Positions 10,685-49,535 of a stretch of DNA of 64,000 nucleotides are shown piece by piece. A program made the translations under genes and the position numbers. The stretch spans positions 6,572,001 to 6,636,000 of the forward strand of contig CM102289.1 in NCBI GenBank assembly GCA_046563655.1, in the 5' to 3' direction. The notes under the pieces were generated by a model. The model searched no databases, was not told the DNA's origin, and saw only the letters and a program-made list of their open reading frames with translations. The stretch comes from Yuukianura sp. NJ FZ-2021. Its lineage: Eukaryota. How positions within the stretch are numbered: the first letter of the stretch is position 1; every line of letters starts with the position of its first letter.

Positions 10685-12509
10685 ATGCGTCTTTTTGGTC
10701 TCTCCAATTTGGATGCTCTTTTGAGCCTCCTTCTTGTGGAATTAGTAAGGACTTTTCAGTTGAAATTAAAAAAAAAGATTTAGTTTAAAGAAATGTTTTT
10801 CTATTTTCGTAATTTTTTTTTGTTAGACATGGTGGGGACTGGTGTTTTTTGGACAATTCCTATGGTACTTGTTCATAAAAGTTGGAGTATACGTGGAAAC
10901 TACTGTGGAAGTTGGAAATGCTACCAATTTTGACGCTGAAAAATTGCATAATGCAGAAGGGGATGTTTTCGTTACGCACATTTTGCCAAACTATTTGAGA
11001 AATCCGGAAATATTGGGTAAAACTTTGCTTATGGTTTATATCAAATAATATAAAGAAATTTATATATTATAGAAATGATTGCAATTTTTTTAGACAAAGA
11101 ATGGGAAGAGTTAATACTTCTGTTGATTTTCGGAGCTTTGCTTTTTCTTCGATTGAAAGCACCATTTCTACTTTTAGTGACGGTGCTAAAGAACAAGGTC
11201 AGTTATTTTTTGAAAAATTGAAATTTTTGAATTTTGACGTAAAGTTTTTTTCAAATTTTAAATTTTAACACAGGTCAATGAGCATTGTCAACTACTGCGC
11301 ATTTGGTACTGGATGACCGTTCTGCTGGACATATTGCTTGTTGTCTATGTTCTATTTCTAGCTGGAATGTCAGGCGGCCTAGGTCAAATTTTGGAAACTG
11401 CTGTCGACAGAGTTGTGCTTTTTGTCATTTTTCGATTGATTTTTTGGAGTGTCGCCAAAACTGTTGTCGCCGAATTGTCTGTCAAGGAAAGTTCGCTCTT
11501 TCCAGTTGTAGGGCCGAAAGGTGTCTTCTTATACCTTGCATCAAATGTCAAAAATGCAATTGGAATGCTTCTAACCTGGGAAATTGTAAAGAAATATTCA
11601 AACCTCAAATTTTGTTTTGAAGTTTCTAAAATTTTCAAAATATTTTCAGCTTATCAATTCCTTGCATCTTCTGTCATCAGTTATCTTCTACCTTCATAGC
11701 ACGCTTCCAGAGGACATAGGATTGTTTACATATTACTGGGCAGGTACGAAATGTAGTTTTACATTAGAAAAAAAACAAGGTTCGTTGACGTTAATTTTCT
11801 ATAAACATTTGAAGAAAACTCATTTTTCTTCGTAAAGGGACCTTGGAAAAAAAAACTTTAATTTAGCAACATGTTTTTTAGAAAATTCGAAAAATTTTAG
11901 GATTTTTTTTAAACTTTTAGTTTTGCTACCGAACCCACACACATCTTCGACTGGATTTGCGAGTTATGGATTTTATTTCGGATGGATTTGTTTCGGATTG
12001 ATGGTACATATGGTTCTGATCGTTCTTCCAAGTTTACAACTTGCAGCAGTGAGCAAGGTATGTTCCAAATGTACAGCATGAACCACGATTTTTCATGACA
12101 CAGTTTTACGAATTTTTATGATTCTGAATTTTTGAAAAAAAGTTTTGTTTTATGATAGGATAAAAGAGGACTGCTGAAAGTTTTGATCGTACTGTACATA
12201 CTGTTTGGATTGGGTGGCTACGTTGCATACAACGTTTTCATCTTCATGGATATTTTTGATTTTGTTCTGAAGATGGCAAATGAACAACCCGAAATGGCTG
12301 TTACCTACTTCACAGCATTTGGTGCTTCGATTCTGATGGAATTTGGACAAATTTTGCTACGGTTGTTCTTGATTGAATTCTTGATGCAGTTTGTATTGCA
12401 TGAACCTGAGGTTGATGACGATGGCACTGAAGCTGGAAAAGAACGTAAAGCCATACTTCAACCATTTCTGGGAAAAGAACTTGTTCCAGAAGAAGGTGAC
12501 ACTGAATAA
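10685..12509 (+). CDS. Uncharacterised polytopic membrane protein (~8 TM), 7 exons
   Basis: GT-AG exons join in frame from MRLFGLSNLDALLSLLLVEL through TWWGLVFFGQ, DKEWEELILLLIFG, VNEHCQLLRIWYW, LINSLHLL and GFYFGWICFG to DKRGLLKVLIVLY...EEGDTE*. There are eight long hydrophobic segments and an acidic tail. The start codon is uncertain. Confidence 0.7.
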
Positions 12510-14214
12510 TAACGCAGTACTTGTCATTTGTGCCGTCGCAACTCATCAAACTGTTTCGAAAAAATTTATGTTTTCGCACTGCCCCAAAAACATAAAATGT
12601 ATTGCTAATTCAACAATGTGACAGTCATTTAAATAAAATAAAATTAGTACCTTAATTTTAGAACTTTAGCTTACTTTAATTTGGAACAAAATGACGTCCA
12701 GGAATTTTAAATTAAACCAGAATGCTTAGCGTTCGTGCTGGGGCGTCGCGCCAAAAAAGTTCCGCCGTGTTATTTAAAACTTTGACGTTTCGTCCGACCA
12801 CTTCTTAAGATCAAAGCAGCCAATCTAACCTTTGACCTCAACCCATGGTTACATTTCATGCGCTACATTCGAAAATAGGTGTTTTATTTAACGACCATTT
12901 ATCAAAGAAGATCCCCTTGAAATGACTGAATAAGTCTTAAAATGTGAAAAAAAAACAATGTAATTAATTTTGAAAGATTTCAAAAAAAAAGTTGAAAGGT
13001 TACATCTTACATGTTGTAACAATTAATTTGTGGTAACAAGTTAGATGCGAACTATAAGTTTCATTTCCATAAGGAAGGGTTTGGCGTTTTCTGCAGCGCG
13101 GGAGATTCCTTCGTTTGAAAAAATCAAATGATATGACTGATGTATACCAGCTAAACCACTTGTGTCTTTTCAAGGGGCGCCAATGCGTCCAGGGATTTTT
13201 ACTTTTCAGTGTACATTTTAATTAATTGTTAATTAAGTTTAATTTAAAAATAATGCCTGGTATTGTGATTTTGATTTTCCTTTACAAAAACAACGTAAAA
13301 ATGTTTGTGAAAAAAAAAACAGCTAAATTTGTAACGTTTTACAGAAGTCAGCTTAGTAATTCCTCACAAACCTTAAGTCAAATTGGTAAGTGTGGGGTGT
13401 AAAATCTGCAGCTTTTACACCATTTCTAGAGCGGAAATTCTCAACGTTGAAAATTGACGCAGATAAATCGCCTTTAGCGGTTCAATTGTACAATCATATG
13501 ATTCAACTCGAGTGGATATTAGACTATTTGATTTATATCTATCAGATTTACCACCCTACACCAAATAAAACAGTAAAATATCAGGAATGTTATTAGCGTG
13601 ACAGGATAATCGTGGGCTAGATAGTTGTGATGAAAAAATAAGCGATTGGTAAGTCAAATTAAATTCTCAAAGTAAAAAAAAAGTATTGTCACTACAATTT
13701 TTTTTAGCGGCTGCTAACAAAATAGAAGCCGATAGAAAAATGACATTTCGAACTCGATAACAAATATTAGTTACATACATAATGTAATACATAATGGGGA
13801 CGGGACGTTGACCTTTTATTCATACAACTCAAAGCGCACCGCTGAAACGAACCTCTGCTTCTCAGACATCAGAGAAGAAAATTTGTTTACAAATTTATCA
13901 ATTCAGTAATTTCCATTTGCTTGTTTTGATTGTTTTGTGGGTTACTACTCTAGTTTGTCTAGTTTCGTTTCGACGTTGGCCTTTCAAAATCAAATCTTAA
14001 ATGAAACAACTTCATAAATAATTCAAACGCTTCTTCAATTTGACGTTCATACGGTAAGTTATTTGTGGCATTTTTCCATTTGAATTGAGACAGAGTATCA
14101 AACCGACGTTTCAAATGAGAAATTAGATCTGTGTCTAAACGTAAACTGCTACGGTATTGATTAGGGTAATTCCTTGTTTATTTTTATTAGTGGCGTTGTC
14201 TTCCTGGATACACG

Positions 14215-17184
14215 ATGGCGGACCCCAGCAAAGCGTCAGGTCGTACTGCGTCGAAGATGAGCATTTATCGTTGCAAATATTGTGGCAGTACATTCGTTAA
14301 GGCTGATGAACTCATTGCTCACAAACGGGAGAATCACCTCGCGGAAATAATTGCAGCGAAGAGAAGGGAGGCGATGCAGTCACATTCACGTTGCGAAAGT
14401 AATGAAACCGGACATAGTAAAGTCATACCAAAACCAACGTGTACGCCACCGGCAAAATCATCATCAATTTTCGTTTCTGAGTTAGTGCACTTTAAATTGA
14501 TTAATGTGGAAAAGGAACGTTTCTTATTGAAATGTCTGTTTTTAGGAGCACAACTATTTTGGAGTCAAACATTGACGAACATCAGAAGGAAACGAACATT
14601 TTGGATGCAGCGAATAATATGAACGAAGTCAAAAATTTGGATGACAAGGAACAAGAATTTCAACCTGTCATTTCCATTGGATCTGTGAAAACCATCAGCA
14701 CTGTTGGCGAAGAATTCGTTTGTCCGATTTGCAATTCTGCATTCAACTATGATTATCAGTTGATCCAGCATATGAGCGTACATGAAAACGAAAGCGCTGG
14801 GAAAATCGGACCTACCGAGCAGTCCCGTACTAAAACCGGCGCCTTTACAATGGAATTGGACATGGAACCTAAGGAGGAAAAAACGCTCGGGACTACAGAG
14901 CCAGAACGTAACCAGAAAGCTGAACTTCCAGTGCTTCCGCCATGTTACGTTGTGGTAACTCGTCTTATCGTTGTTGACAAGGAACCACCTACCGCTTCCA
15001 ATTCTACAAGTAACAAGGCGCCAGGTCCTATTCGCCGTCACCTAAGTCATTTTGGTCGCAGAACATTTAAATGCAAATATTGCCATAAAAGATTTCAACG
15101 CGTTGGATTGCTCAATCTACACATCAAGGCGGTTCACCATGGAATACCTGCCCCTTCAGAACCGGAGTCTAGTTCAGAATCTCACCAACATTTCGCCAGT
15201 ACCAGTAAGCTCACTCAACTAGATTCGCTACCCCCAGTCGGAGCTGCAACGGGAAGTCAACCTACGAATCTACGTAGTCCGAAACATCATCCTACGTTAC
15301 CATACGTCACAGATTATTCCTTCGGCAAAGCCTGGCATAAATGTACCAGTCCTGGATGTAGTTATGCCACCAAGGACAGAACTTGTATTGAGAGCCACTC
15401 GCGTCATCATATTGAGAGACTACCATTTCAGTGTACATTATGCAATGCAACATTCACTACAAAGTTTGGAAGAAGTTTACATGTGAACAATAGCCACAGT
15501 ATAACTGCTGACGCTAAAATTAGTAATCAGTCCAGCCAACAAAAATTTTCATCAATTTCGACGAAACCCAAGATTAAGATGGCTTTCAACCTTCAGATTG
15601 CCGCAAAGGCTAAGCGGTTAGAAAAATATCGAAGACAGGCAATTCCGGATGGCTTACCACACCCTTGTGTCGAATGCTCGATCGATTTCGATACAAGTCG
15701 AGCATTAGCTTATCATCGCCGAATTAAACATTATAAGCAGGTCAAGTGTAACTACTGCCCATATAAAGCCTTTAGAGGCAATGTGAACATGCACATGCAG
15801 CGGCTTCATAGTAACAAACACGGAACTGATAACGAATGTCAGTACTGCGGTAAGTATTTCCATTCTACAAAGCAACTCTCGCATCACCTCTCGCTGTCTT
15901 CAAATATTTTTTTTTTAAACTCTTTGTGGTTTAACTGTTTAAGGAGCCCGATGTTCGTCATTTGGAGTCTTGAAAAAACATATTGCGTCGGTGCATGAAA
16001 AACCGACCGGAGTTGCACAACCGGAACGAAGGGAAATAAAAGTTCAGAAACGGAAACCGTGGCCAACGGTTCCTATTCAAGAAGAGAAGAGAAATATTCC
16101 GGATGGTCCAAAAAGTCGAAGAATGTACGACTGTAGCCATTGTCCCTATGTGTCCTACAACACCGGAGGTATAAGGCGACATGTCAGAAACGCTCATACG
16201 GTGCAGCGGCGTTTCAAATGTGAACACTGCTCAGCGTCATACGACGCTCCTCATTATTTGGAGATGCACAAGGTACTTCATTCGCAAAATTCGACTCGGG
16301 AAGCGTCGCCAGGGCCAAAGATTGTGTCAGTTACGTCTGTGTCAACGAGTTCCACGAGTAGCACTAGCAGCGTAATCGATGGTTCGACCAATGTCAAGTC
16401 ACTTGTTCGTTCCACCCGACCCACAAAAAGCATGGCTGAAGATAGTGACTTTGATGATGACGACATGGACGTCGAACGAGGCCGTGTGAATATTGCAAAG
16501 AGTAGCAAACCCAAACGTTTTAAGTGTAAGATTTGTGGTCTCGGGTATCCTATGAGTGGCAACTTGTCTCGTCACAAGAAATGTGAAATTCATCTCTACA
16601 ACGAAAACATTTACCGACGCATGAACGGCCTACCGCTACTGAAAAATGCGCCGTCTTTAAGTTCACTACGAGTCAAGAAAGTCCTCTGCAGCATTTGCAA
16701 GATGGTTTTTCAAACATGGGGAACTGTCGATGCACACAAACTGAAAAATCATGGAATTCGGACGAAGACCGAAAAACCTAAGCAAGTAATTCCAACACCA
16801 AGACCAGTATCCAGTGTTACAGCAATTGTTCAATCTCAACCACGATTGTTGGATAAAACAATTGACGAAGTCGCTTCTCAAGGAGCTGGAACTGACATCA
16901 AATGGTCGTCTTCCGACAAAAGCCAAGTAGAGAAAGAGACTGACAATTATAGTGCAAGTGATGGGTAATCAACATTTAAATTACTGAAACAATTTTTATG
17001 ATTTATGAGATTATTGATTGTTAAATTCAATTTCAGTTCCATTTGGGGCAAAGTTTCAAATTCATCGGCTGAAAAAACTGAACTCATGGATACTTCCAGT
17101 TCGCCGGAGGGCAAAAAGGCTGTTTCTGTTACGCAACAAAATAAATCTGGACTTAAGATAACTACCGTAAGGTATGGAAACTAA
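14215..17184 (+). CDS. Multi-C2H2 zinc-finger protein (4 coding exons)
   Basis: Many CxxC-x12-H-x3/4-H fingers (YRCKYCGSTF, FVCPICNSAF, FKCKYCHKRF, FQCTLCNATF, YDCSHCPY, FKCEHCSASY). Introns at about 14480-14547, 15850-15943 and 16964-17036. Stop TAA at 17182-17184. Confidence 0.88.
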
Positions 17185-20680: not shown

Positions 20681-20704
20681 TCCTGTTATAAATTATATTA
20701 ACAT

Positions 20705-22609
20705 TTAAAACCTGACGACTTCCGTAGAGCGAGAGAATGCGCCGTTAAGAGTGCAGTAATATTTCATCAGCTCCAATCCAAACCCAACTACAGAGACAAC
20801 AATACAAATTGCAAAAAGCTGAAAGCATACAAGAATATTTGGACCAAGTTCAACTGGAACAAAATCCGACGATTTTTGATGACGAAGGGACCTAGTTTGA
20901 ACAAATTCTTGTAATTTTGAGTAAAATTTAAACAAGCCATTTGACGCCATTGTTTGCAGATATTGTGCTATCAGTTCTGATCTTTGTCCGGAAGGTTGCC
21001 AAGCAATCAACCCCTCAAACAGCATCTCTTTAACAAAATTACAAGTTATGTTGTATCTTTTGACTTTGTCCAAATCTGTTTGAAGTAAATCCACGTCTCT
21101 CAGAACAGCACATTGGTTTGCCAGTGACGCCATTTGTTCAAGATCGTACATGCGTGACGGACACTTTTTATACAACAGTGGGTCCGACACGTTGATTCCT
21201 TTCTTCTCAATGGTAGCACGTATGTGTGCATCTAAAAATCTGCGCTCGCGTTGAATGCTGAATCCTTTTGCAATAAGCTTCGCATTCGTTTGGATTTGTT
21301 GTTCTGAAGGCGGAATAGTTACTTCGCTGCTAGTTACCGCCTCGTAAATATTGCTTATATAAAAGTAAACAAAAAAGTATAATGTAAACAAAAAAGCAAA
21401 GTAACGCTTATTCGTAGTTGGTGACTGCCGTAGAACCAGTCCAACCAGGAACAAGAAATCCACTCTGTTTATATTTACAGCATTCCTGACAAATAAAAAC
21501 AAAAACCTATGACAATTTCTAAGATGAAATTATCAATTTATGTAAATATTTTGTAAAAGTTAGAACATTTATAATAATAATACCAATACACGCAATTTAA
21601 TACATTTGGCACAATTTTTGAACTTACCGCAATTTGACTTGCGTTGAAAGTGCGTACAAGGCCAGCAATCCAATTACAATGCAGAACCAGGTAGGAATGT
21701 CAAAGGTGTCAAGGAATACATCCAACACGGGAACTAAAATACTCGGATTAGTTTCACAGTAAAGTAAATAATTTTGTAATGGTTTTTCGATTACAAAATA
21801 GGAAAAATTATATCTTGACCTATTAACATGGTTTCCAAGCCAATAGTATCCATTGGCTGTACTGAAATCTAAACTTCCATTGAATAGCAATTTTTTGAAG
21901 TGCAGAATAGGGAGTTTTGGAAAGCATGATTTACCAATATGATCTACCGGATACAAAACATACCGTAGGTATTCCCTGGGAATCGCACAATTGTGATTCC
22001 TCTCATCCTCTGTGTCTCCTGGAAGTACTTTTTCTTCCACATTCTTTAAATCCACATCACTTCTCATGTGCGAATGCTTATAAATTAGAAAAATATGCGC
22101 CCTAGAAATAGTTTTCAAATTTTGGTGGTAAAGCACTGATTCTGAACTAAATAGTGCAAAAGTTGCAGAAGTTATAGAACACGGATGGCAAAACACGCCC
22201 CACTCAACAACACTTTTTGTGCTGGAATTGTACGTAATAAAAACAACTTTTAGAGCAAAGTCATTGAAGTTGAAACCTGTGAACTTCAGCGTGGGCAGTA
22301 GATAGTTTTGAGTTTCATGAAAATTTTGAATATTTTGAATAATGAACATTACAATATATGGAGACTCGTAGATGGCCGAATTGACTGCATTATCAACTAG
22401 GTTTGAAAAGTTGGCATTTTGATAGATGTAGTACTCACAATGTTCATAACGACCAATCGATATTGGGTAGACAAATGTTTTCCAAATATGAGAAAAGACA
22501 AAACTGTTTTCACCGATAGCGGCATAATTTTCTACAGTTTGTATTGTTTCAGAAGTTAACTCATCTGTGTTGCCGAAATTGTCGAAAATGAAATTTACAG
22601 AGCATCCTT
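20705..22609 (-). pseudogene. Divergent ionotropic-receptor-like gene, copy A (start codon and signal peptide deleted)
   Basis: Close paralog of 27411-29410. Homology stops at KGCSVNF (about 22609) and joins directly to sequence matching the upstream flank of copy D (aaaatttctgg...). The first in-frame ATG is at 22349. The rest of the frame is open. Confidence 0.7.
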
Positions 22610-22974
22610 TAAAATTTCTGGTTACGAAAATATAATCTTCTTTTGCCAGAAGCTGCTTATGACACTGTTTCGCTGAGTTATCGTTTTTGTCAGACTCAAT
22701 TTAAAATTCTGGACTAGAAAACAACAAAATTCAAGTTTCTGGAGAAAGCTACTTTTTTTTGCAATGTTTCTTTTTTAACGAGACGAGACTACCTTTTGTA
22801 TTAAATGTTTATTGCCAACAATCAGAATCCTATTAACAGGGTGATTTGAAAAAAAAACAATGCAGATTTTGAATAACATATAAATACGTGCAGCATTAGA
22901 AACTTCTACATAGCTTGTGATTTCAAAATTTTCGAAACTTGAAAGCTTCTGAAGAAATGTTATATTCTGAACAA

Positions 22975-23320
22975 GGTATGATACCCGCTTGTGAAAGCGG
23001 GGCTAGCTTTTGTGGTAGTGTATACGAACACACATAGAAAAACGTATCACTTTTGGGAACCCGTTACCCGTTTGAGATACATTAGTATCATTTATTTTCA
23101 TGAAGGTCCATAATCATGAAATACGACCTCTGAAGTGTTGCCCGTCGGAACGTCAAACTGGATTCAGCATTTTTCACGCGGCGGGTTGCTTGTGCCGAAC
23201 GACGAAACATTCCAAAGCATAGTGAATTGTGAATCTGTCTTTTCCGAATTTATGAAGAACAATCCACTGCTGGAAAATGTCACAAACCAATGCAAACACT
23301 ACCTGTAGTATTCTATTTAC
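22975..23320 (+). mobile_element. Degenerate P-element/THAP9-type transposase C-terminal fragment
   Basis: 23123-23308 translates TTSEVLPVGTSNWIQHFSRGGLLVPNDETFQSIVNCESVFSEF, matching the WI-x3-SRGGL-x2-P...E-x2-F motif of P-element transposase C-termini. An upstream frame-broken GLAFVVVY...RKTY resembles the L-x-Y-x-AGY segment. The stretch has no counterpart in the other array units. Confidence 0.6.
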
Positions 23321-24820
23321 CTTGAAAGCATACAAGAATATTTGGACTAAGCTCAACAGAGGCAAAATCCGATGATTTTTGATGCCGAAGGGACCTAGTT
23401 TGTGCAAAATCGTGTAATTTTAAGTAAAATATAAACAGACCACTTGAGGACATTCTTTGTAGATACTGTGCTATTAGTTCTGATCTGTGACCATAAGGTT
23501 CCCAAACAATTAAACCTTCAAACAGCATCTCCTTTACAAAATTGCAACTTAGTGTTTGATTATTCGTTTTAACGGAGTTTAAATCAGTTTGAAGTGTATC
23601 CACATCTCTCAGAACTGCACATTCGTTTGCAACTGCCATTTGCTTAATTCCGTCCACGTATTGCGGACAATTTTTATGTATAAGTGAATCTGATAAATTG
23701 ATTCTTTTTTGTTCAATTGTGGCACGTATTTGTGCATCTAAGAATATGGGGTACTTCGGAATACTGAAGCCTTTCGCTATAAGTTTTGCATTTGATTGTA
23801 TTTGTTGTTCTGATGGTGGAATTGTTACTTCGCTGCTAGTTACTCCCTCGTAAATATTGCTTATATAAAAGTATACAAAGAAATATAATGTAAACAAAAG
23901 AGCAAAGTAACGCTTGTTTGTAACTGGTGGTTGCCGTAGAATGAGTCCAGTCAGGAATAGAAAATCAACTGTGTTCATATTTACCGAATTTCTAAAAAAC
24001 AACATTTAAAAAAATAATAATTAAATTAACATTAATATTTAAATTATTCATAAAAATTCTTATGATAGTAGTTTATATAATCTTATCGGAATTCTACAAA
24101 ACTTGAATACACCGCTACGCAATGGAGCTTGAATTTTACCGCAATTTAGTAAGCTTACCGAAACGGTTTACCTTACCGCAATTTGACTTGCGTTGAAAGA
24201 ACGTATAATCCTAGCAATCCAATCACAATGCCCATCCATGTTTGTAGGTCAAATGTGTCAAAAAATACGTCCAACACGGGTACTAAAATACTCGGATTAG
24301 TTTCGCAGTAAGGCAAATAATTCTGTAATGGTTTCTCGATTATAAAATAAGAGAAATTTTGTCTTGACCTATTAATTTTGTTTCCAAGCCAATAGTGTCC
24401 TCTGGAAATAATAAACATCCGACTCCCGTTGAATAGCATATTTTGAAGATGCAGAATCGCGTATTCTGGAATACATGTTCTACCATCCTCATCAAGTGGA
24501 TCACGTCGTAGGTATGCTCTAGGAATTTCACAATTATGACATGCGTCATCAAAAGTTTTTCCTGGACGGACTTTTTCTTCCACGTTTTTTAAGTCCACGT
24601 CCGTTCTCATGTGCAGATACTTATAAATTTTGAAAATATATGATCTAGAAATAATTTTCAAATTCCGGCGGTAAAGGCTTGATTCTGGACCGGAAACTGC
24701 AAATATTCCAAAAGTTGTAGAACATGGATGACAAAAAACACCCCAGTCAACGACACTTCTTGTTCTGGAATCATACGTAATAAAAACTATTTTTAAGACA
24801 AAGTAGTTAAACGGGAAACC
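23313..24820 (-). pseudogene. Divergent ionotropic-receptor-like gene, copy B (5' and 3' truncated)
   Basis: Paralog of 24987-27038. The N-terminal ~130 codons are deleted, and the junction at about 24820 joins intergenic sequence like that at ~27255. The reading frame ends NILVCFQGK* before the last TM helix, where the transposase relic begins. Confidence 0.7.
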
Positions 24821-24986
24821 TTTACGTACACAGAATAAAATAGTCACAAATGCAAATTTTGAAAAATGTCTATGACATGCAGGTAGCTTTTTTTTAGAAA
24901 GAAAATCAACAAAGTACCATCAAATACTCAAGAGTCAAGACTACTAACATATGCATACGGACTACTTAGATTATTGGACAAGTAGG

Positions 24987-27038
24987 TTATTGCTGCCTTT
25001 TAACATTTAAAACGACAACTTCCGTGGAGTGTGAGCATGCGCAGTTAACTTTGCAGCAATATTTTATCAGTTCACATCCAAACCCAACTACAGAGACGAC
25101 GATACAAATTGCGTAAAGTTGAAAGCATACAAGAATATTTGGACCAAGTTCAACAGGGACAAAATCCGATGATTTTTGATGCCGAAGGGACCTGGTTTGA
25201 ACAAAATCGTGTAATTTTAAGTAAAATTTAAACAGACCATTTGAGGCCATTGTTTGTAGATACTGAGCTATTAGTTCTGATCTATGCCCGTAAGGTTCCC
25301 AAACAATCAAACCTTCAAATAGCATTTCCTTTACAAAATTGCAACTTATTGTTTGATTATTTTTTTTAACAAAGTCCAGAAACGTTTGAAGTGTATCCAC
25401 GTCTGTGAGAACTGCACATTCGTTTGCAACCGGCATTTGGTCGATTCCGTCCACGACTGACGGGCAGTTTTTATGGGTATGCGGATGTGATAAATTGATT
25501 CCTTTTTGCTCAATGGTGGCACGTACTTGTGCGTCTAAGAATTTGTCATCCTCCAGAATACTGAAGCCTTTTGCTATAAGTTCAGCATTTGATTGTATTT
25601 GCTGTTCTGATGGTGGAATTGTTACTTCGCTGCTAGTTACTCCCTCATAAATATTACTTATATAAAAGTATACAAAGAAATATAACGTAAACAAAATAGC
25701 AAAGTAAGGCTTGTTTGTAACTGGTGATTGCCGTAGAATGAGTCGGGTCAGGAATAGAAAATCCACTCTGTTCATATTTACCGCATTGCTAAAAAAAATT
25801 AAACAGAAGTAATAATTAAATTCATATTAACATTAATATTAAAATTATTCAGAAAAAAATCCTACAATAGTAGTTTATATAAGCTTCAAAAAGTCGTCAC
25901 AGAATTCTACAAAATTTTAACACCAAGCTACACGAAGGAAGTTGAATTTTACCGCATGTTACTAAGCTAACCGAAACGTTTAACCTTACCACAATTTTAC
26001 TTGCGTTGAGACAACATATAGTGCTATCAATCCAAGCACAATGCTCAACCATGTAGAAAGGTCAAAAGTGTCAAAGAATACGTCCAACACTGGTACCAAA
26101 ATACTCGGATTCGTTTCGCAATAAATAAAATAATTTTGTAATGGTTTTTCAATTATAAAATATGAAAAATTATTTCTTAATCTGTTAACTTTTTTTCCAA
26201 GCCAATAGTGTTCACTCGATCTGGTAAACATACGACTCCCGTTGAATAACATATTCTGAAGATGTAGAATTGCGTATTCTGGAAAACATGTTCTACCATA
26301 GTTATCAAGTGGATTATTCTGTAGGTACACCCTAGGAACTCCACAGTTATGCCATATGTCATCCCATGTATTTGCTGGAGCTGGACGGACCTTTTCTTCC
26401 ATGTTTTTTAAGTCAACGCCCGTTCTCATGTGCATATACTTATAAATTTTGAAAATATTTGATCTCGATATAATTTTCAAATTTCGGCGGTAAATACTTG
26501 ATTCTGCACCTGAAACTGTAAATACTCCAGAACTTGTAGTACACGGATGGCAAAAGACGCCCCAGTCAATAACACTTCTTGTTCTGGGATCGTAGGTAAT
26601 AAAAACGATTTTTAACGCAAAGTAGTTAAACCGAAAACCTCTACCATATCGTCGCGGGATAACATAATTTTGAGTGTCTTGAAAAAGTTGAATGTTTTGA
26701 ACAACGAACATGACAATATATGGAGACTCGTAGATGAACGAATTGAATGCATTATCAACTAGGTTAAAAAAGTAAGGATTTTGGTATATGTAGTACTCGC
26801 AATGTTCGTAACGACCAATCGATATTGGGTAGACAAAAGTTTTCCAAATTTGAGAAAAGACAAAACTGTTTTGACCAAAACTGGAGTACTTTTGTACAGT
26901 TTCTATTATTTCAGAGCTTAACTCATTTGGGTTGCCCAAATTGTCGAAAATGAAATTGACAGAGCATCCTTTGTCCAATGGTGGGAAAATGAGATCTGCA
27001 TTAACACTGAAGAACAGGAACAAGAACTGCAACAGCAT
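24987..27038 (-). CDS. Divergent ionotropic receptor (IR/iGluR-like) membrane protein, copy C, 2 exons
   Basis: Signal peptide, extracellular domain, pre-M1 VFFDTFDLSTW plus TM1, pore-like LILRQ, M3-like FYISNIYEGVTSSEVTIP, an S2-like region and M4 ELGPNILVCFQLYAICIVVSVVGFGCEL. One GT-AG intron at about 25790-25988. Confidence 0.75.
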
Positions 27039-27410
27039 GACGAAAAATGTTTTATGAAAATGTAACCTGAGTAGTAGTGCGCGTTTGTATTAAATTGAAG
27101 CAAAATTTCTGGCTTCGGAAATAGTTTATTGCGAGAACGATGAAACTACTTTGTTTTAAGGTATGGTCTGTCTTGTCACAGTCAATTTAAAATTCCGGAA
27201 CAAAAAACAGCAAAATTCAAGTCTCTAGAGAAATCAAGTTTACAAAATTGTAGCCTTACGTACACAAAACAAAATAGCCACCAATGCAAATTTTGAAAAA
27301 TTTATAGGACATGCAGCCGCTTTTTTAGAAAGAAAATCAACAAAATACCATCAAAGGGCAAGAGTACTTTAGATTAGTAGGTTATGACTACCTTATATTA
27401 ATATTAACAT

Positions 27411-29410
27411 TTAAAACTTGACGACTTCCGTGGAGCGTGAGCATTCGCAATTAACTTTGCAGTAATGCTTTATCAGTTCACATCCAAACCCAATTATGGA
27501 AACAACGATACAAATTGCGAAAAGTTGAAAGCATACAAGAATATTTGGACCAAGTTCCACTGGAACAAACTCAAGTGATTTTTGATGCCGTAGGGAACTA
27601 GTTTGAACAAAATCTTGTAATATTAAGTAAAATTTAAACAGACCATTTGATGACATTGTTTGTAGATATTGAGCTATTAGTTGTGAACGTTGACCGGAGG
27701 GTTGCCAAGCAATCAATCCTTCAAACAACATCTCTTTAACAAAATTACAAGTTATGTTGTGTCTTTTGACATAGTCCAAATCTTTTTGAAGTGAGTCCAC
27801 GTCTCTCAGAACGGCACATTGGTTTGCCAGTGATGCCACTTCTTCAAGATCGTTCATGCGTGACGGACACTTTTTATGCAACAGGGGATCCGACACGTTG
27901 ATTCCTTTCTTCTCAATGGTGGCACGTACGTGTGCATCTAAAAATCTGCGCTCGCGTTGAATGCTGAATCCTTTTGCAATAAGCTTTGCATTCGTTTGAA
28001 TTTGTTGTTCTGAAGGCGGAATAGTTACTTCGCTGCTAGTTACTCCCTCGTAAATAGTGCTTATGTAAAAGTAAACAAAAAAGTATATTATAAACAAAAG
28101 AGCAAAGTAACGTTTATTTGAAGCTGGTGGTTGGCGGAGTGCCAGTCCTACAAGGAACAAGAAGTCCACTGTGTTCATACTAACAGCATTCCTGACAAAT
28201 AAAAATAAAATCATGTGCACATGTAGTTAGTTACATGGAATGATTAATTGATGAGAATATTTAGTAAAAATTTGTTTTATTTTAGAACATTTATAATAAA
28301 AAACACCAATAGATTAATATCAGAATAAGATTAATACATTTAGCGCAATTTTTGAACTTACCGCAATTTGACTTGCGTCGAAAGAGCGTACAGACTCAAC
28401 AACCCAATCACGATACCCAACCACGTTGGAATGTCAAAGGTGTCAAAGAATACGTCCAACACGGGTACTAAAATACTCGGATTAGTTTCGCAGTAAAGAA
28501 AGTAATTTCTTAATGATTTTTCGATTATAAAATAAGAGAAGTTTTCTCTTGACCTGTTTACTGGATTTCCAAGCCAATACCTTCCATTGGCCTCACTGAA
28601 CGCTAAACTCCCATTGAATATCAAATTTTGGAGATGCAGAATAGGGAGTTTTGGAAAACATCTTTTACCACGGTTACGTACTGGATACAAAACGTACCTT
28701 AGGTATTCCCTAGGAACTGCACAATTGTGATTCAACTCGGCATCTGTCTTTACTGGAACGACTTTTTCATCCAGATTCTTTAAGTCAACATCAGTTCTCA
28801 TATGCACATGCTTATAAGTTTTGAAAATAAATGATCTAGAAATAATTTTTAAATTTTGGCGGTACAGCTCTGATTCTGGTCCAAAAAGTGCAAATGTTCC
28901 AGAAGTTGTAGAACACGGATGACAAAAGACGCCCCAGTCAACAACACTTTTCGTGCTGGAATTGTACGTAATAAAAACAACTTTTAGAGCGAAGTCATTA
29001 AAGTCGAAACCTGCGTCGTTCAGTGTAGGCATTATATAATTTCGAGTTTTTTGAAACTGTTGAATATTTTGAATAATGAATATTACAATGTATGGAGACT
29101 CGTAGATTACCGAATTGACTGCGTTCGCAACTAGGTTTAAAAAGTTAGGATTTTGGTAGATGTAATACTCACAGTGTTCATAGCGACCAATGGATATTGG
29201 GTAGACAAAAATTTTGGAAATTTCAGAAAACACAAAACTGTTTTCGCCGATAGCGGCGTACGCTTCTACAGTTTGTATTGCTTCAGAAGTTAACTCATCT
29301 GTGGTGCCTAAATTGTCGAAAATGAAATTTACAGAGCATCCTTTGTCGAATGGTGGAAAAATGAGCTTTGCGTTAACACTCTGGAACAAGAACAAAAACT
29401 GCAACAACAT
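27411..29410 (-). CDS. Divergent ionotropic receptor (IR/iGluR-like) membrane protein, copy D, 2 exons
   Basis: Same architecture as copy C (MLLQFLFLFQSVNA signal; FFDTFDIPTW; LALRQ; YISTIYEGVTSSEVTIP; FQLFAICIVVSIIGFGCEL) with the intron at the same position. Confidence 0.75.
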
Positions 29411-30074
29411 GGCGAAGGTTCACTTTTTTTTTTCTAAAAATCTGATTTAAGAAGTAACGCGCGTGAGCATAACGTCTCAAATAAAATTTCTGGTTTTGAA
29501 AATATAATCTTCTTTTACCAGAAACTGCTTATGAACTGTTTCGCTGAGTTATCGTTTTTGCCAGACTCAATTTAAAATTCTGGAATAGAAAACAACAAAA
29601 TTCAAGTCTCTGGACAAATCAATATTACCTAATAGTAGCCTCAAATACAAAAAAAAAATAGTCACGAATATAAATTTTGGAAAATATCTAGGACAAGCAA
29701 ACAAAAATAAAATGAAAAAAAAAGAAATGAAACAAAAAGCAACAAAATCAACAAACCACATGCAAATACATACTCTTGAGTTTGAATGTCCTGTCCAATA
29801 ACCTTCAATGCTATTTTAATTTTTTTTTTGCAGTGTTTCTTTTTTAACGAGACGAGCCAAACTTTTGTATTAAATGTTTATTGCCAAAAATCAGAATCCT
29901 ATTAACAGAATCAGAAGTAGGTTGATTTGAAACAAAAAAAAAGCACTGGAGATTTTGAATAACGCATAAATACGTTCAACATTAGAAACTTCTACATAGC
30001 GTGTGATTTCAAAATTTTCGAAACTTGAAAGCTTTTGAAGAAATGTCAGATTCTGAATACGCTGCTGTGGTGTT

Positions 30075-31820: not shown

Positions 31821-33316
31821 ATGGAAGCCCTACCGCCAATTTCCAAAGAATTTTTAGAAGAAGCTCTCAACAAAAAAATTGAATCTTTTACAATGAAACC
31901 TGGAACGAACGTAGGCGACAACTACATGAGTGTACTCTACTCTTTTGAGGTCGAAGTTCAAAAAGAAGGAGACAACAACAACAAGAGTGAAACGCTTCAT
32001 CTACTTTCAAAATGCTATCCGGCCCATCCCGCACGCCAAACGTTTTTAAATACTTCAAATGTCTTTTGGAACGAACTTTCAATCTACAAGGTTTTGATTC
32101 CTGAATTTGAGTCTTTCGCTAACAAATTCGGTTTGGGAGACAAAAAGTTATTTCCGCCACTCATTGGAGGAAAGGCGATTGATTTCGAGGAGTTGAAAAG
32201 TAATTTCAAAAAACTGCTTCAACCATAATAAATTTTGCATTATACTAACCTTGAAAAATATTCGCTTTTTTAGGACTTGGCGATAAAACATACGATGGCA
32301 AAGTTTTCGAGTCTTTTGATCTCTACATTATGATGACGGATATTCGCAAGACTTGGGGATTTCGTATGGCGGACCGTCGTAAAGGACTAAATTTTGACGA
32401 AATGAAGCTCGTCATCAGTGCACAGGCTAAGCTTCACGCTTTGTCTTGGGGGTACAAGCAGTTGAACAACTCGAAAACGCTCTCAGACAAATTCGATTTT
32501 CTGGAATTTCGATTTACGGATGAAGACAAAGTGATGTGGGGTAATCTGATGGAGGCAAATATTCAATTGGCTGCGGATACAGTTGAAGGCGTAGTTGGAA
32601 AAGATTCAATTGTCGGCGCTCAAATTCAAAAAGTTAAGAAGAACGTATCAGACATAATGGAAATCGCTTTTACAAATAATGCAACAGAACAAAAATTTTA
32701 TGACTCCCATCGTCTTCCACCAACTGAAAAGATAAACGAAGGTAAATATTTCAAAATAACACAAAACCTGAATGTTTTCTAAAAAAATTGTTTGTTTCCA
32801 GAACCGTGGCGAGTTTTATTACACGGCGATTGCTGGACAAACAACTTACTGTTTCGGTACGACGAGAAAACGGGCAAACCGCTGGAAGTAATTCTTGTCG
32901 ACCTGCAGATGATGCGCGAACATTGTCCAACAATGGATTTGGCTTACCTCTGCTACTGCAGTACAACAACTGAATTCAGAAGGGAACATTTGAACAGCAT
33001 TTTAGAACTTTACCACGACCAGTTCGCAAGCCACTGTCAGAAAATGGGCGTACCAGCTTTACCGGGTTTTAGTCTGGAAGAACTCAAACGACGGTTTCAT
33101 CGAGCAAAAGTTTTGGGATTTTTTATGGCCACTATGGGGCTTCCAATCATGTTGAAAGATGCTAAAGACATCGTTGATATGGAAACAATTGAAGCCACTG
33201 ACCTTGCCGACATGTTTGAAAATTTTATATCAGTCAAGGAAAATAACACAAATGATTTGTATACGCGCAGGATGGTAGCAACGGCGTTGGAGTTACATGA
33301 AGATGGAGTTTTGTGA
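31821..33316 (+). CDS. Ecdysteroid kinase-like (EcKL / CHK kinase-like) protein, 3 exons
   Basis: GTNVGDNYMS, MTDIRKTWGFRMADRRKGL, AKLHALS, Brenner motif LLHGDCWTNNLLFRY, VDLQ and DLAY. Introns at about 32200-32273 and 32742-32801. Confidence 0.9.
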
Positions 33317-33716
33317 ATGAAATTTATTAGTGCACATAATTTTAGCACACATGGATATTTTCTTTGCGCTAAAATGCCAAAAATTGTCAGTATTTTCCTG
33401 ATTTGTTTGTTTTTGACAATTTGTTTAAATTTTACTGATCATTGAAAAACGGTATATAAGAAAAATAAAAAATTAACCTCTTTAGGCTGTGAAAAATAAA
33501 ATTTGAATACTATTTCTCGTGGCAATTCAAATCTTTATGTTTTTAACACCACTGTAGAATGTTACTAACCTAGTCGTAACATTGAAGTGACGATAAAGCA
33601 CCAGGAAGTAGTACACCACATACAACCTTCCACTTTTTAGCACATAAAACGCCCTTCCCTTCTATCAGTTGATTTCAGTTGTGAATGTGATTAGTACCAG
33701 TTGGGAGGTGTTAACT

Positions 33717-35240
33717 ATGGAAGGTTTACCATCCGTTTCTAAAGACTTCTTAGAAAAAATTTTGAACAGAAAAGTAAAATCTTTTGAAATCAAGTTAGGA
33801 AGTGCCGTTGGTGACAATTACATGAGCGCCATTTATTCTCTAGAAGTAAACGTTTACAACACAAACAGCGAAAATAGTGAAACTTTGTACTTAATTTCAA
33901 AGTGTTATCCAAATAATCCCACTCGACAAAAACATTTAAACAAAACCAATATTTTCTGGGTTGAACTCTCAGTGTACAAAATTCTATTGCCAGAATTAGG
34001 TGCATTGTCTAATAAAATTGGAGAGGATGATCGTAAACTGTTTCCACCATTCATTGCCGGAAATGCAATCGATTTTGACAATTCGCGCCGTAAAGAAATG
34101 AAAATTTTAATAGGATGTTAAATTCAGGCGTAGGATTAGTATATAAAATATTTTTGTAATTTTCAGAACTTTATGATCCATCCGCAGAAGAAAAAATATT
34201 TGATCCCTTTGACATCTTCATTTTGATGGAAGATATTCGGAAGAGTTCGGGATTCCGAATGTTGGATCGCCGGAAGGGGCTGGATTTTGATGAAGTGAAA
34301 CTTGTTGTCATTGCGCAAGCAAAACTTCATGCTCTTTCATGGGCGTACAAACAGATGAATAATTTGAAATCCATGGTTGACAAATTCGATTTTGTGAAAA
34401 TTCAACGTGACACTGAAAATTTTGAAATGTGGGTACGTCTTTTAGAGGAAAACGTTCTTCAAGCGGCAGACACTGTAGAAATTGTGCTGGGTCAAGGGTC
34501 AACGCTTGGCGGTCAAATTCGAAAAGTCAAGGACCATGTACGTGACATAATGCGTTTTGCATACGCCGAGTCTTTTCCAGAACATAAACTTTACGACTCT
34601 CATCGAGTTAAACCTGCCGTCGGAGAAATGGACGAAGGTTGAACAATTCAATTTCAAAACAATTATCTTAAAAAATTAATTTGAAGCTAATTTTTCTATT
34701 TTTTTTTCTGTTTTAATTTTTTTTAACACAGAACCTTGGAGAGTGCTGCTACATGCTGATTCTTGGACAAACAACTTACTATTTCGATATGACGAAACTA
34801 CTTCACAAGCCACAGAAGTAGTTATTGTTGACTTACAGATGATGCGAGAGCATTGCCCGACACTTGACCTAGTTTACCTTATGTACAGCAGCACAACTCC
34901 ACAATTCAGAAAAACACACTTGAACTCAATGTTGAAAATATACCATGACCAGTTTATATCCTACTGCAAAAGACTTGGCGTTCCTACACTACCAAATTTT
35001 ACTTTGGAAGAACTTACAAGAAGGATTCAGCGTGCCAAAATGTCGGGATTTTTGTTCGCTGTAACTTTTCTTCCAATTACGCTTAAAAACTCTGAGGATA
35101 TGATTGACGTTGAGAAAATTGAAGGAACCGAAGCTGCCGACCTTTTTGTAAATTTCAAAACAGACGGCGGTACAAACAATTTGTTCGTCCAAAGAATGCT
35201 AGAGACTGCGTTAGAATTACAGGCGGAAGGTGTTTTGTAA
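33717..35240 (+). CDS. Ecdysteroid kinase-like (EcKL) protein, tandem paralog, 3 exons
   Basis: GSAVGDNYMS, MEDIRKSSGFRMLDRRKGL, AKLHALS, LLHADSWTNNLLFRY and VDLQ. Intron positions match the upstream paralog. Confidence 0.88.
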
Positions 35241-35788: not shown

Positions 35789-37985
35789 ATGAAATCCGTA
35801 ACAGGAGCATTTGTTGTAGCCTTGTTGACTACTTTTGCAGCAGCGGCGACTGCAGCAGATCCCTTAGACGGGTAATTATTTACAAATTATGAGTTAGATT
35901 TTGTTAAAACTGTGGAATAACACATTTTTTTACAACTCGCTCAGATTCAAAGTCCTTAGTGTGACTGCCTACACGCCAAAGCAGTTTGAGTTACTCAAAA
36001 GTCTTGTGGATCATGATGACTTTGACTTTTGGACACTCCCAACGTACAAAGGGGTCACCGACATCATGGTTAGCCCTCAACGGGTGAAGGAATTGACCAA
36101 TCTATTTGCAACCAGGAGCATGAAATGGAGCGTTAAAATTCGTGACGTTGGAGCGTAAGTGCAAATTTTTAAAAACCAAAATATTGTTTTTTTAAAAGAA
36201 AATTCAAATTCGTTTTGTTTTGGAAACAGGATTGTGGCTGAACAGAAAAAGGCCAACGACGCTGCACTTTTGAAAGCCAATGGTGAAATGACATGGGACG
36301 CTTATCAGCGATACGAACAGGCATGACAGGCACTTCAAAATTTCAATTGTTTGTAAATTCCGAAAATGTTATTATTGGCTTAAAATTTCCAGATTGAAGA
36401 GTGGTTCAACACCATAAGTTCACACGAGTTGGTGACCTTGACTGTCATTGGACAAAGTTATGAAGGCCGTAACTTGTACCAGGTCAAGGTATCCACTGGA
36501 GCCCTTGGAAATGGTGACCTGAAACCAGCAATTTTCATTGACGCTCACTTGCATGCCCGTGAATGGGTGTCTGGTGCTTCTGCTACTTGGATTATCAACG
36601 AGGTCATCACGAACTCTCACCTCTACACTAACTTGTTGGACAAATATGACTTATTTGTCGTAGCAGAAGCAAATCCTGATGGGTACGAATATTCCCATGG
36701 TATTGGCAACAGAATGTGGCGCAAAACTCGAAGCATCAATCCAGAAAACAAGGACTGTCCTGGAACTGATCCCAACAGAAATTTTGCGTTTCATTTCGGT
36801 AATGAACCACGATTGACAAAATTTAACGTTACAGCAACATTTTGAAGAGGTTGCAAAAAATTGACTTTGCTCTGAAACGTTTGAATTATAGGAGGAGAGA
36901 ACACATCAGATCGCCCATGCTCTGATCAGTACAGTAAGCGAAACTACTTTTCTCAAATCAAGATTTTTACCTCAAACTCGAAAAAGTTTAGTTTTGCTAA
37001 AGTTTCAAAACGTTTTTAGAGGGGTCATCAGCTTTTTCTGAACCTGAAACTGCAGCGATTCGAGATGCCATCAAGAATTTACAAGCTGAACGAAATGTTC
37101 ATGCGTACTATACGATTCATTCCTACGGCCAAGTAAATCAACCACCCTTTATAACCATTTCACACCTTGCAAATATTTAGTTGTGTTAATTTTTATGATC
37201 AACTGCACCACAGTTGTAATTGAATTGTCGTATTCTTGATTTGTTTTAGTATTGGCTGCTATCATGGGGTTATGCGGAACAAACCTATCCTGATGACTTT
37301 CCGGAGCTGGTAAGTTTCAAAATTTTTGGAAACAACAACTTCAATTAAATCCACAATTGTAAAATTCTTTCTTTCTTTTATAGAAAGAAAAATTTAAAAT
37401 TTTGATTCTTTTATAGCTGAGTTGGGGTCAAGAGAGTGTTGGAGCTATTAAAAGCGTCCATGGAAAGAGATACGAAGCTGATCAAGGAGCAGATTTACTT
37501 TGTATGCGACCAATTTTGTCAAAGTTGAATAGATTGACAAAATAATTTAGTTAATATGAATTAATCTATTGCATTTAGATGCTGTTGGTGGCGCTAGTGA
37601 TGACTGGGCTAAGAACGAGGGAGTCAAATACGTTGTGTGTTTGGAAATTAGAGACCAGGGCCAATACGGTAAAACATAAAATTGAATTCAATTATTGCAG
37701 AGAATTTCATTTTAATAGCAAAGTTAAGTATTTTAAATGATTTTCTAATTTTGAATGATTTTCTAAACATAATTTGCACAAATAGGTTTTCTCCTTCCAC
37801 CAGAACAAATTATCCCAACTGCTCAAGGTTAGTAACCAGATTTCACAGAAAGTGATGTAGTTCTGAATGAATTTTTAGTTTTCGAAAATAAGCACTGAAG
37901 TTTAAAAAAAAAACTTTCGATGTTTTTAGAAATCTGGGCCGGGATCCAAGTCGTTGCGCAACCTCAATATGATCCAAGACCATAA
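35789..37985 (+). CDS. M14 zinc metallocarboxypeptidase (carboxypeptidase B-like) preproenzyme
   Basis: Signal peptide, propeptide (DFW...DIMVSP), HAREW, NPDGYEYS, RMWRKTR, DPNRNF, FSEPET, TIHSYGQ, YAVGGASDDWA (Asp in the specificity position) and LEIRD. Multi-exon with stop at 37983-37985. Confidence 0.92.
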
Positions 37986-38478: not shown

Positions 38479-40353
38479 TTAGTGTAGAAAAATTGGAAGT
38501 GAAACATCCGTTTTGAAATATTCTTCCGGATCCCACTTTCTTTTTGTATCGACGAGTTTTCCCTTGTTTTGTTTATAATTTCTACCCACAAGTTCCAATT
38601 TGTCATAATCCAAATCTTCAAAATTTTGATAACTTTCTCCAGAATCCCAAAACTTCGTAGAATTTCGAAACTGACGGACCCAATGAACGCCCTTAAGTCT
38701 TCCTTCCTTCTTCACCGTTCCTTCGTATCTGTAACTCACGTTGAAAGTTGCATTTCGATGAACGTATGAATTTTCATTCCTCGCATGGCTTCGAATTGCT
38801 CCAGTTTCAGTTGTTACTTGGACCAAAATATGTGGAGCCATGTTGACAATTTCGTCTTTGAGTTTGAGTAATTCGGCGTTGGTGAGAAGGCGGTTGACAA
38901 ACATCGACTTCAACTTGAAGAATCGCTTGGCAGCGTTTTCCTTGGTCATCAACTTCATGTAGGAATGGAGTTCCTCCTCTGTTGGCATTTCACCCTTGAT
39001 TAATTTCTTTTTTAGCATGTACGATGGTTTTCCGTCGATGAGGCGCGGATATTCGATTGGAGCGTAGCCAGTGGTACTGACGAATTCAAAATAATTTGGA
39101 TTTGTAGTGGTAATGTCATTGGTTTCAGCAAAAGTTGATTTTACGGTGGTTAAAAAGTCTTCATCTGATTTTGGCTGTAAAACTGGATCTTGAATGTGGA
39201 GCAATTGAATTGTAATTCCTTTGAGAAGGGCCGGGTACTGCTTGTTATATGAATCTGAAATTTTTTAAGATTTTGGTAAAAAAAAAAGCAAAATGAAAGC
39301 AAATTTCATATTTCCAATTACCGCTTGTAATGAACAGAGTCCTAGAACTTGTTGGATTGTTTTCTTCTGACCAAGTATGGAACTTTTGAAATGCTTCGAA
39401 CGCTTCCACGAACTTTTTGAGCGGGTATCGTACCGTTACAAAGGTCAATTTCAAATCCGCGGCTTTAATGATTTTCAATTTTAGTTCAGTGATGAGTCCA
39501 ACCAGTCCAGGGCCCATGCCTCTCACGGCCCACCATAAGTCCGGTGGGTTGTTCGGTCCCACTTCGTGTTTATTTCCAAAAGAATCGATGAGGTCAAAGT
39601 TCAAAATATTGTCCACTGTTAGGCCATAGAGGGCACTGAAGGGCCCTTGGCCTCCACCAATAGCATTTCCCGCAAGTCCAGCAGTTAGGTGGTGGGACAT
39701 CGGTAGTCCATAACCTCCGTTTTTCCACAAGTAGGAATGAATAGATCCGACAAGCTGAAAAGATCAGAAATCAAATGCTGGAATCTGGGCATGCGCACTT
39801 GACCAAAACTAAAAACTTGACTTACAGCTCCCGGTTCAACAGCTACTACTGGGCCAGTACTTGTTTGTTCAATTCGTATCTTGTTCATTTGTCGAAAGTC
39901 CAGAACAACCGAATCCGGTTTGCCCCATGAAATAGATTCAAAGGACAGGCCACCACTGTTCGGAACCAATGGCTGACTCGCTTTCTTTCCACATATGACA
40001 GCAGTCGAAACGTCTCGCGCAGACGTAGGAACAAGAATGGCTGCAGGATCCACTGGCTCCTTCTTTCCGATTATGCGCAGATTCCAAGCATTATTCAAAT
40101 CCTGAAATGCTTCGTCTTCTGGAAGCACCAACTTGTTTATGCGAAACTTGGATGCGTCGTCAGCCAAACACTTTTTGAATTCTTGGAAGTGAAAACTGCT
40201 AAGCTGGGTCTTAACAGTATCCTTCACCCATGTCATTGGTTTTTTAACGAGATTATTGTAGGCCGTACTTGGAGAAAACCAGCTACCGTCAACGTCCCAT
40301 GGTGAAAATGCTGCAAGTAGCAAAAAACAAAAAGCGAGTTTCCAAAATTTCAT
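38479..40353 (-). CDS. Secreted FAD-linked oxidoreductase of the BBE/VAO (FAD_binding_4 + BBE) family, 3 exons
   Basis: Signal peptide; PAAILVPTSARDVSTAV, SGGxSFE, VLDFRQMN, VEPGA, GGGQGPFSALYGLTVDNI and DLWWAVRG; C-terminal YQNFED...LVDTKRKWDPEEYF. Two GT-AG introns. Confidence 0.88.
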
Positions 40354-48746: not shown

Positions 48747-49535
48747 CAGTGGAATTTCCAAATAAGGGACAGGAGCTCCTCCTCTTTTTCACTTTCATAT
48801 CATAACTTTGTTGTTTGATGAGATAGCGCAGATCTAAAACCTGATTTTCATCAAATTCTGAGACAAAAAAAAATTCGAAAAAAAAAATTTCAAAAAAATT
48901 TTTTTTTGTGAAATTTTGATTTCCGAGAAAATTTTTTTTGCTTTTTGGTATCAGGGGTCAATAGAGAGTTTACACAAAAATTTTCAAAATTATCCGAATT
49001 TTTCCACTAAAGGAAAATTTTACCCAACTGCGCACAATCTGCGCTACTGCGCACAAACTGCGCAACTGCGCACAATCTGCGCAACTGCGCACAATCTGCG
49101 CTACTGCGCACAATCTGCGCTACTGCGCACAAACTGCGCTACTGCGCACAAACTGCGCTACTGCGCACAATCTGCGCTACTGCGCACAAACTGCGCTACT
49201 GCGCACAAACTGCGCTACTGCGCACAATCTGCGCTACTGCGCACAAACTGCGCTACTGCGCACAATCTGCGCTACTGCGCACAAACTGCACACAAACACA
49301 ATATTGATACATATATAGATATCACATATAATTAGCAATAATATATGAATATTATTTATATATTATTATTAATTATATAATTTAAACGTCGAAACAGGAA
49401 ATTTTCATTAGAATGGTTTTCCTAGCCTTAAATTCCATATAACTGACCGTTTACCAGAAATCTTACGGTACTGGGGGAGGAGCCTACTTCCAATCCTCCA
49501 ATCGTGATTTTTTCCCTTATTGGGAAAAGTCACAG
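48747..49535. mobile_element. Tc1/mariner-like non-autonomous element (MITE) with internal minisatellite
   Basis: The left end TA|cagtggaatttccaaataaggga matches the reverse complement of the right end (ctgtgacttttcccaataaggga) at 18 of 23 positions. An inner gctcctcc/ggaggagc inverted pair is also present. There is no transposase. Confidence 0.6.
49028..49293. repeat. 19-bp tandem repeat CTGCGCACAAWCTGCGCWA, 13 full copies plus 1 degenerate
   Basis: Directly visible 19-bp periodicity with variation at only two W positions. Confidence 0.97.

Follow-up and report, generated by a model that had tools for sequence, protein, structure and literature searches.

A predicted secreted BBE-like protein of Yuukianura sp. 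with neither of the covalent FAD anchor residues

An intact gene for a BBE-like protein of the AA7 type, in which both residues that bind FAD covalently in this family have been replaced, was found on the minus strand of the 64,000-nucleotide stretch of Yuukianura sp. NJ FZ-2021 DNA analyzed here (the window). The oxygen pocket has changed along with the two anchors, an orthologue in a second species shares the loss, and the gene nests among bicovalent arthropod enzymes. The protein probably holds its flavin loosely, or is no longer an oxidase. We infer FAD binding, a lower redox potential, poor oxygen reactivity and catalysis, and the best of several candidate readings, put forward tentatively, is a secreted dehydrogenase-type protein with a predicted non-covalent FAD.

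Three minus-strand exons (40353-39826, 39754-39322 and 39254-38479) join into a frame of 578 residues with zero internal stops. They are separated, as the initial annotation had proposed, by two spliceosomal introns, intron 1 of 71 nt (39755..39825, phase 0) and intron 2 of 67 nt (39255..39321, phase 1), both GT-AG and predicted from the reading frame and homology. Exon 1 (39826..40353, minus strand, residues 1-176) encodes a predicted signal peptide, an N-terminal extension and the first half of the FAD-binding domain. The predicted signal peptide, of about 23 residues (40285..40353), was assigned by hydropathy only, residues from about 3 to 18 being hydrophobic; in the alignment, the orthologue likewise begins with a hydrophobic segment and shares the VDG junction. 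The extension that follows (about 30 residues, 40186..40284) is moderately amphipathic, is common to the orthologue and is missing in sciarid relatives with complete N-termini. Residues 129-144 (39922..39969), which we take from established knowledge of the VAO fold to be the FAD phosphate-binding loop, include the first replaced anchor and are identical to the orthologue at 16 of 16 positions. Exon 2 (39322..39754) carries the oxygen-reactivity motif, at residues 194-213 (39644..39703), and the remaining FAD-binding core, and exon 3 (38479..39254) the substrate-binding domain and the C-terminal BBE motif, through the stop codon.

The domain assignment was obtained from Pfam and from structure. 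FAD_binding_4 was detected on exon 1 (E 3.4e-08, 33.7 bits against a cut-off of 26.4) and extends into exon 2 (E 7.1e-05, under the cut-off by itself), and the BBE domain was detected at the C-terminal end in exon 3 (E 5.6e-06, 26.7 bits against a cut-off of 20.6). The VAO fold was seen in a model of the first 332 residues of the orthologue (locus L031), which matched BBE-like structures with a probability of 1.00. The model of the orthologue's first-exon product had a pLDDT of 89 and the fold of a BBE domain, and its best match was PpBBE1 (E 4.6e-20).

The initial annotation had claimed that the two covalent anchors were lost, and had read a leucine codon at 39946-39948 in the FAD motif. That codon is CTG, and Leu136 occupies the 8-alpha histidine site: SGGLSF aligned without gaps with SGGHSY of chitooligosaccharide oxidase (6Y0R), so that Leu136 stands opposite the histidine of GGH, and the same gap-free pairing was obtained with glucooligosaccharide oxidase. 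PMSHHLTAG aligned, also without gaps, with PAGNCPTVG of PpBBE1, which puts His198 (39689-39691) at the C6 cysteine. The 8-alpha-N1-histidyl anchor is thus replaced by leucine in the window protein and in its orthologue, and the 6-S-cysteinyl anchor by His198 and by glutamine, respectively. The only cysteines of the window protein are at residues 9, 62 and 121, none of them near either site. Anchors kept at shifted positions, which had been named as a check on the claim, were ruled out by the gap-free alignments and the lack of a spare cysteine; the loss therefore stands, and the orthologue with the same loss strengthens it. The exon-1 frame, when read on through intron 1, yields RCPTT right before a stop. 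A frameshift or mis-splicing that hides the cysteine was also considered and rejected, since RCPTT is off-register, the spliced frame is gap-free against the clade and the orthologue without this intron confirms it; the resemblance is put down to chance.

Both anchors were present in 178 of the 238 aligned relatives, with the histidine only in 43, the cysteine only in three, neither in six and eight that could not be scored. The six with neither anchor are the window gene, its orthologue, two proteins of Leptotrombidium deliense and two others whose alignment is less sure. The proteins of this mite (P0178 and P0181) have Gly/Ala and Asn/Leu at the anchors and group together, apart from the window gene, as an independent double anchor loss. 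Another protein, P0233 (ENA, 265 aa), is 49% identical to the orthologous protein P0001 and has a serine at the histidine anchor with the cysteine kept, a predicted mono-cysteinyl form and a separate, further change of tether.

The orthologue (P0001, encoded at L031) is 63% identical to the window protein over exon 2. The two gene neighborhoods agree: on the L031 contig, just like in the window, carboxypeptidase genes stand tail-to-tail with the flavoprotein gene, and another gene found at both loci lies upstream of it. Its spliced product of 582 aa is encoded without intron 1, and a 92-nt GC-AG intron is found at the site of intron 2. The two genes are 56% identical over 566 codons, with a pN of 0.29 and a pS of 0.79 (saturated), and the leucine at the histidine site is encoded by CTC in L031 and CTG in the window. 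Since a syntenic orthologue shares this leucine across saturated synonymous divergence, the anchor loss is old and maintained, under purifying selection. The histidine at the cysteine position is not conserved between the two species. Word-based protein searches, HMMER against 50% representatives and a metagenome scan, all of limited sensitivity, gave no orthologue other than P0001/L031; the scan detected this one locus among 88 candidate stretches, and the ESM Atlas returned generic FAD_binding_4 clusters only. Elsewhere on the L031 contig, two tandem carboxypeptidase genes (9459-13712) match the window gene at about 35900-37800. A pRiA4b ORF-3-like domain (15313-16008, minus strand; PF07929, E 5.5e-20), from a plasmid-named family, lies on this arthropod-type contig and is possibly another foreign gene.

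The tested flanks of the flavoprotein gene in the window are of animal type, with a zinc carboxypeptidase, an EcKL kinase, Yju2, a GMC oxidoreductase and an EF-hand protein. Fungal contamination was ruled out by a contig of more than 6.6 Mb, by the carboxypeptidase, EcKL kinase and Yju2 neighbors, and by a local GC content at the gene like that of its flanks. Additionally, three other features of the window were recorded: some four related genes for membrane proteins arrayed in tandem at 20700-29420 (minus strand), receptor-like by eye and with no Pfam hit in the one exon scanned; at least two tandem ecdysteroid-kinase-like genes at 32255-35240 (plus strand; PF02958 on the one exon scanned); and, at 48862-49335, an open frame in which a unit of about 19 codons recurs, which points to a tandem DNA repeat.

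The genome (98.7 Mb, 22 contigs) contains at least 30 related loci, with 33 matches to exon 1. Both the histidine and the cysteine are kept in 27 of the 27 modelled paralogues (L002-L028), some of these models being approximate; L029 and L030, outside the 27, have the histidine as well. The named close relatives are from Folsomia candida and sciarid flies. In a 24-row tree (LG+G4) the window gene and its orthologue formed a pair (100/100) within an eight-row clade (98/97) whose other six rows are bicovalent. Fifteen rows (14 arthropod or own-lineage, one unnamed) grouped at 95/96, and the node that unites them with Entomophthora and two Conidiobolus proteins has 97/94; a topology constrained to keep the seven named fungal rows in one group was rejected, though weakly (AU p 0.042). 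A quick mixture-model tree of 46 rows agreed in shape at lower support values (92 and 90; 97 for the clade nesting), with two unnamed rows between fungi and arthropods, and the genes of this genome grouped with Folsomia. This grouping and the neighboring genes point to a soil arthropod, probably a springtail, as the host. These trees, in which long branches meet in places, were built without named Dikarya, oomycetes or AA7 clade II; an organism name was available for only 12 of the 30 proteins looked up, and the labels 'plantlike' and 'dikaryalike' are guesses. The branch of the window gene is longer than that of its orthologue (0.46 vs 0.31).

The initial annotation had suggested a horizontally acquired gene, to be examined in a tree. 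For the family this fits the grouping of the arthropod proteins with Entomophthorales, and an early-diverging fungus is the more probable source of the transfer, with Entomophthorales as a lead to the donor. As a separate event for the window gene the suggestion did not hold, given at least 30 paralogues and a nesting among bicovalent arthropod enzymes; for the same reasons the anchors were lost inside the animal lineage, after duplication. AA7 is described as the main auxiliary-activity class among the transferred genes of F. candida (PMC5490193), and the occurrence of the family in springtails, sciarids and a mite recalls the pattern reported for arthropod terpene synthases (PMC11665903). 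Substituted tethering residues and oxygen pocket, as in AA7 clade II, were found, with the same positions changed as in 6YJI. Descent from that clade was not supported, since the window gene nests among the bicovalent arthropod proteins (98/97 and 97) in trees that hold no named clade II sequences. A Folsomia candida protein of 1474 aa (P0210) was also noted, with two complete tandem BBE-like units; the N-terminal stretch before them, about 370 residues long, gave no Pfam hit.

In the oxygen-reactivity motif, Ser196 replaces the gate glycine, His198 the C6 cysteine, Ala201 the gate valine and Asn206 the re-face histidine, and the orthologue has Val, Gln, Ala and Asp at the same four positions. 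Neither copy thus retains the gate glycine, gate valine or re-face histidine of the oxidase pocket. All 22 other rows of the close clade have the gate glycine, the cysteine and the gate valine, and 20 of 21 have the 8-alpha histidine. At three positions on the flavin face the two species have different residues (Ser/Val, His/Gln, Asn/Asp), a pattern that fits relaxation. The nucleotide-binding glycines, Asp152, Arg254, Asn531 and the stacking Phe138 are kept in both copies, and residues 131-144 are identical at 14 of 14 positions, vs 9-13 of 14 in 20 other pairs (48-66% overall identity). The position of the PpBBE1 catalytic Tyr461 is occupied by Phe532 (38620..38622) and by tyrosine in the orthologue, and the clade-typical Glu470 is glutamine in the orthologue, so no candidate base is common to both copies. 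The tyrosine is absent from 11 of the 27 bicovalent paralogues (L002-L028) and the gate glycine from 10; active sites therefore vary widely in this genome, and neither loss is diagnostic here.

Under the preferred reading, a duplication inside the large family of oxidases that soil arthropods derive from fungi would have given rise to this BBE-like protein, and both covalent FAD bonds and the oxygen pocket would then have been lost. FAD would most likely still be bound, non-covalently and at a lower redox potential. A small extracellular substrate would be oxidized and its electrons passed to a quinone or protein acceptor instead of oxygen, the result being a dehydrogenase with hardly any peroxide production, or none. 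We favor a loosely held FAD, the exclusion of oxygen and another acceptor because the pocket changes match those of dehydrogenases, the phosphate loop is identical in the two species and plant galactonolactone dehydrogenase offers a precedent; a syntenic, intact orthologue with the same leucine, whose modelled first-exon product has the BBE fold, also argues for it. A glycine at the first gate is reported to admit oxygen and an alanine to deny it (PMC4898691), and PDB entry 4PZF (G164A) is titled 'reticuline dehydrogenase'. Histidine-to-small and glycine-to-valine changes are described as marks of the dehydrogenase FgCelDH7C (PMC8035211), whose sequence reads PHVRGAHVGVTGSSIGGG, with valine at the gate and serine for the re-face histidine. 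Leucine for the histidine, with an active non-covalent FAD, is reported in the galactonolactone dehydrogenase, of the same superfamily (PMC11505616). By contrast, several observations weigh against this reading. Y461F is reported to leave 0.5% activity in PpBBE1 (PMC6001459), and the window protein has phenylalanine there. The double mutant of ChitO was barely expressed and alditol oxidase H46A bound no FAD (both second-hand in PMC4148704), and the second gate is an alanine, smaller than the oxidase valine, vs the leucine of plant dehydrogenases (PMC4898691). The FAD core is 66% identical between the orthologues, vs 69-87% in seven of seven bicovalent pairs (54-61% overall), pairs that are mostly paralogues and confound the comparison, and of 49 family-conserved columns 39 are retained in each copy (the median being about 92%), which places both within the lowest 6% of 185 rows. 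The anchor-less lineage is also sampled in two species only.

Part of this evidence would also suit a redox-dead protein, a secreted binder or scavenger that uses the substrate pocket and in which FAD is structural or absent. This comes a close second, as a possible but rather doubtful account. It would explain why five flavin-face residues, which vary little or not at all across the close clade, were replaced together, why no base is shared, why the FAD core is relatively relaxed beside a substrate domain relatively well kept (54% identical), and why the window copy has the longer branch. It sits poorly with a 16-residue phosphate loop that is identical despite saturated synonymous divergence, with the joint loss of cysteine and re-face histidine reported in the flavin-containing AtBBE-like 28 (PMC4898691), and with a tyrosine that varies so often among the bicovalent paralogues.

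A non-redox enzyme, an isomerase or cyclase on the BBE scaffold whose chemistry does not need the flavin, is less probable again. No acidic residue is shared at the mapped active-site positions (Glu470 vs Gln), the mapping of this domain being uncertain, and no biosynthetic genes were found among the flanks tested (carboxypeptidase, PSI-repeat protein, Yju2). Set against this are runs of the substrate domain that are identical in the two species, e.g., residues 381-391, and the fungal AspoA, described as lacking the cysteine, tolerating H158A and using a glutamate as general acid (PMC8752850). A binder or a non-redox enzyme is plausible because of the changes at Tyr and Glu470, the relaxed core, the mutant precedents and the flavin-free catalysis of AspoA.

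That the protein is an ordinary peroxide-making oxidase, differing only by a non-covalent FAD, is improbable. Ala201 leaves the second gate open, the gate glycine is also missing from some paralogues, and high activity is described for AA7 oxidases of oomycetes whose pocket is apolar and lacks the re-face histidine (PMC11992081); nevertheless, Ser/Val at the first gate and the loss of the histidine match the dehydrogenase pattern, and loss of the cysteinyl bond by itself is reported to cut oxidase activity about 20-fold in two enzymes (PMC8035211). A decaying duplicate or a sequencing artefact would be consistent with the longer branch and the fewer conserved columns of the window copy, and is very improbable in view of the open frames and predicted signal peptides that both species have, the intron site common to them, a pN far under the saturated pS, and different codons for the shared leucine. 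Finally, the suggestion of the initial annotation that a histidine exactly at the cysteine position makes a new bond to FAD C6 is close to excluded, because the orthologue has glutamine and the corresponding His174 of AtBBE-like 28 (a gap-free match of 37 residues to His198) is described as unbonded in the crystal (PMC4898691); the same cysteine-to-histidine change is also reported in oomycete AA7 clades III/IV (PMC12537922).

The transfer is mostly known; what is new is the double anchor loss together with the remodelling of the oxygen pocket. AA7 clade II sequences without the histidine, the cysteine or both have already been noted (PMC8035211), and mono-cysteinyl oxidases have already been characterized (PMC11992081). 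The literature search, which left most subscription papers outside its scope, found neither a characterized natural BBE-like protein that lacks both anchors nor any account of this anchor-less arthropod lineage. The reasons for double FAD bonding have been studied mostly with alanine mutants, and a double mutant of one fungal enzyme is cited as barely expressed (PMC4148704, second-hand). Here two species keep a natural double loss in an intact gene, alongside bicovalent sister genes with about 43% identity in the core, which makes the holding of FAD without bonds, its potential and its use of oxygen directly testable; the gene also illustrates how an animal has remodelled a family acquired by transfer. 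The full scenario, in which a peroxide-making oxidase taken from arthropod-infecting Entomophthorales expanded and gave rise to a fully non-covalent, oxygen-blind secreted dehydrogenase, with tether loss recurring in a mite, is speculative and rather unlikely as a whole. If true, an active BBE-like enzyme lacking both FAD bonds would exist in nature, a form predicted in AA7 clade II and uncharacterized in the literature searched.

Compared with known systems, the nearest proteins are those of Folsomia candida (XP_021961662 and XP_021959913), Pseudolycoriella hygida and Bradysia coprophila and the paralogues L002-L008, which belong to the same clade (98/97), are secreted and have the same NSGG and RGxGPG motifs. 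L002-L008 and P0002 are 43-48% identical to the window protein over exon 2. The Folsomia and sciarid proteins and L002-L008, all uncharacterized and named by similarity only, differ from it in keeping the histidine, cysteine, gate glycine and valine. The best structural match to the orthologue model was PpBBE1, the cellobiose oxidase of Physcomitrella (6EO4/6EO5; PMC6001459), with a TM of 0.69-0.70 and 29% identity. PpBBE1 is bicovalent, and none of its residues H111, C172, V175, D396, Q424 and Y461 is kept in the window protein, the mapping of D396 and Q424 being uncertain.

FgCelDH7C, an AA7 clade II cello-oligosaccharide dehydrogenase (6YJI; PMC8035211), has lost the cysteine, the gate glycine and the re-face histidine, as here, but is an ascomycete enzyme that keeps the histidyl bond. 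We infer convergence from its place outside the close relatives, this protein not being included in the trees. AtBBE-like 28 (5D79; PMC4898691) also has a histidine for the C6 cysteine and an amide for the re-face histidine, but keeps the 8-alpha histidyl bond, the gate glycine and the valine, and is a slow oxidase. The plant L-galactonolactone dehydrogenase (PMC11505616) shares the VAO fold, a leucine for the flavinylating histidine, a non-covalent FAD and a non-glycine gate, and is a strict dehydrogenase. By contrast, it belongs to the aldonolactone oxidoreductase family, is mitochondrial and was never bicovalent. AspoA (PMC8752850) is likewise a BBE-like protein with reduced covalent tethering, and differs in that it keeps the histidine and acts as a flavin-independent isomerase in a fungal biosynthetic cluster.
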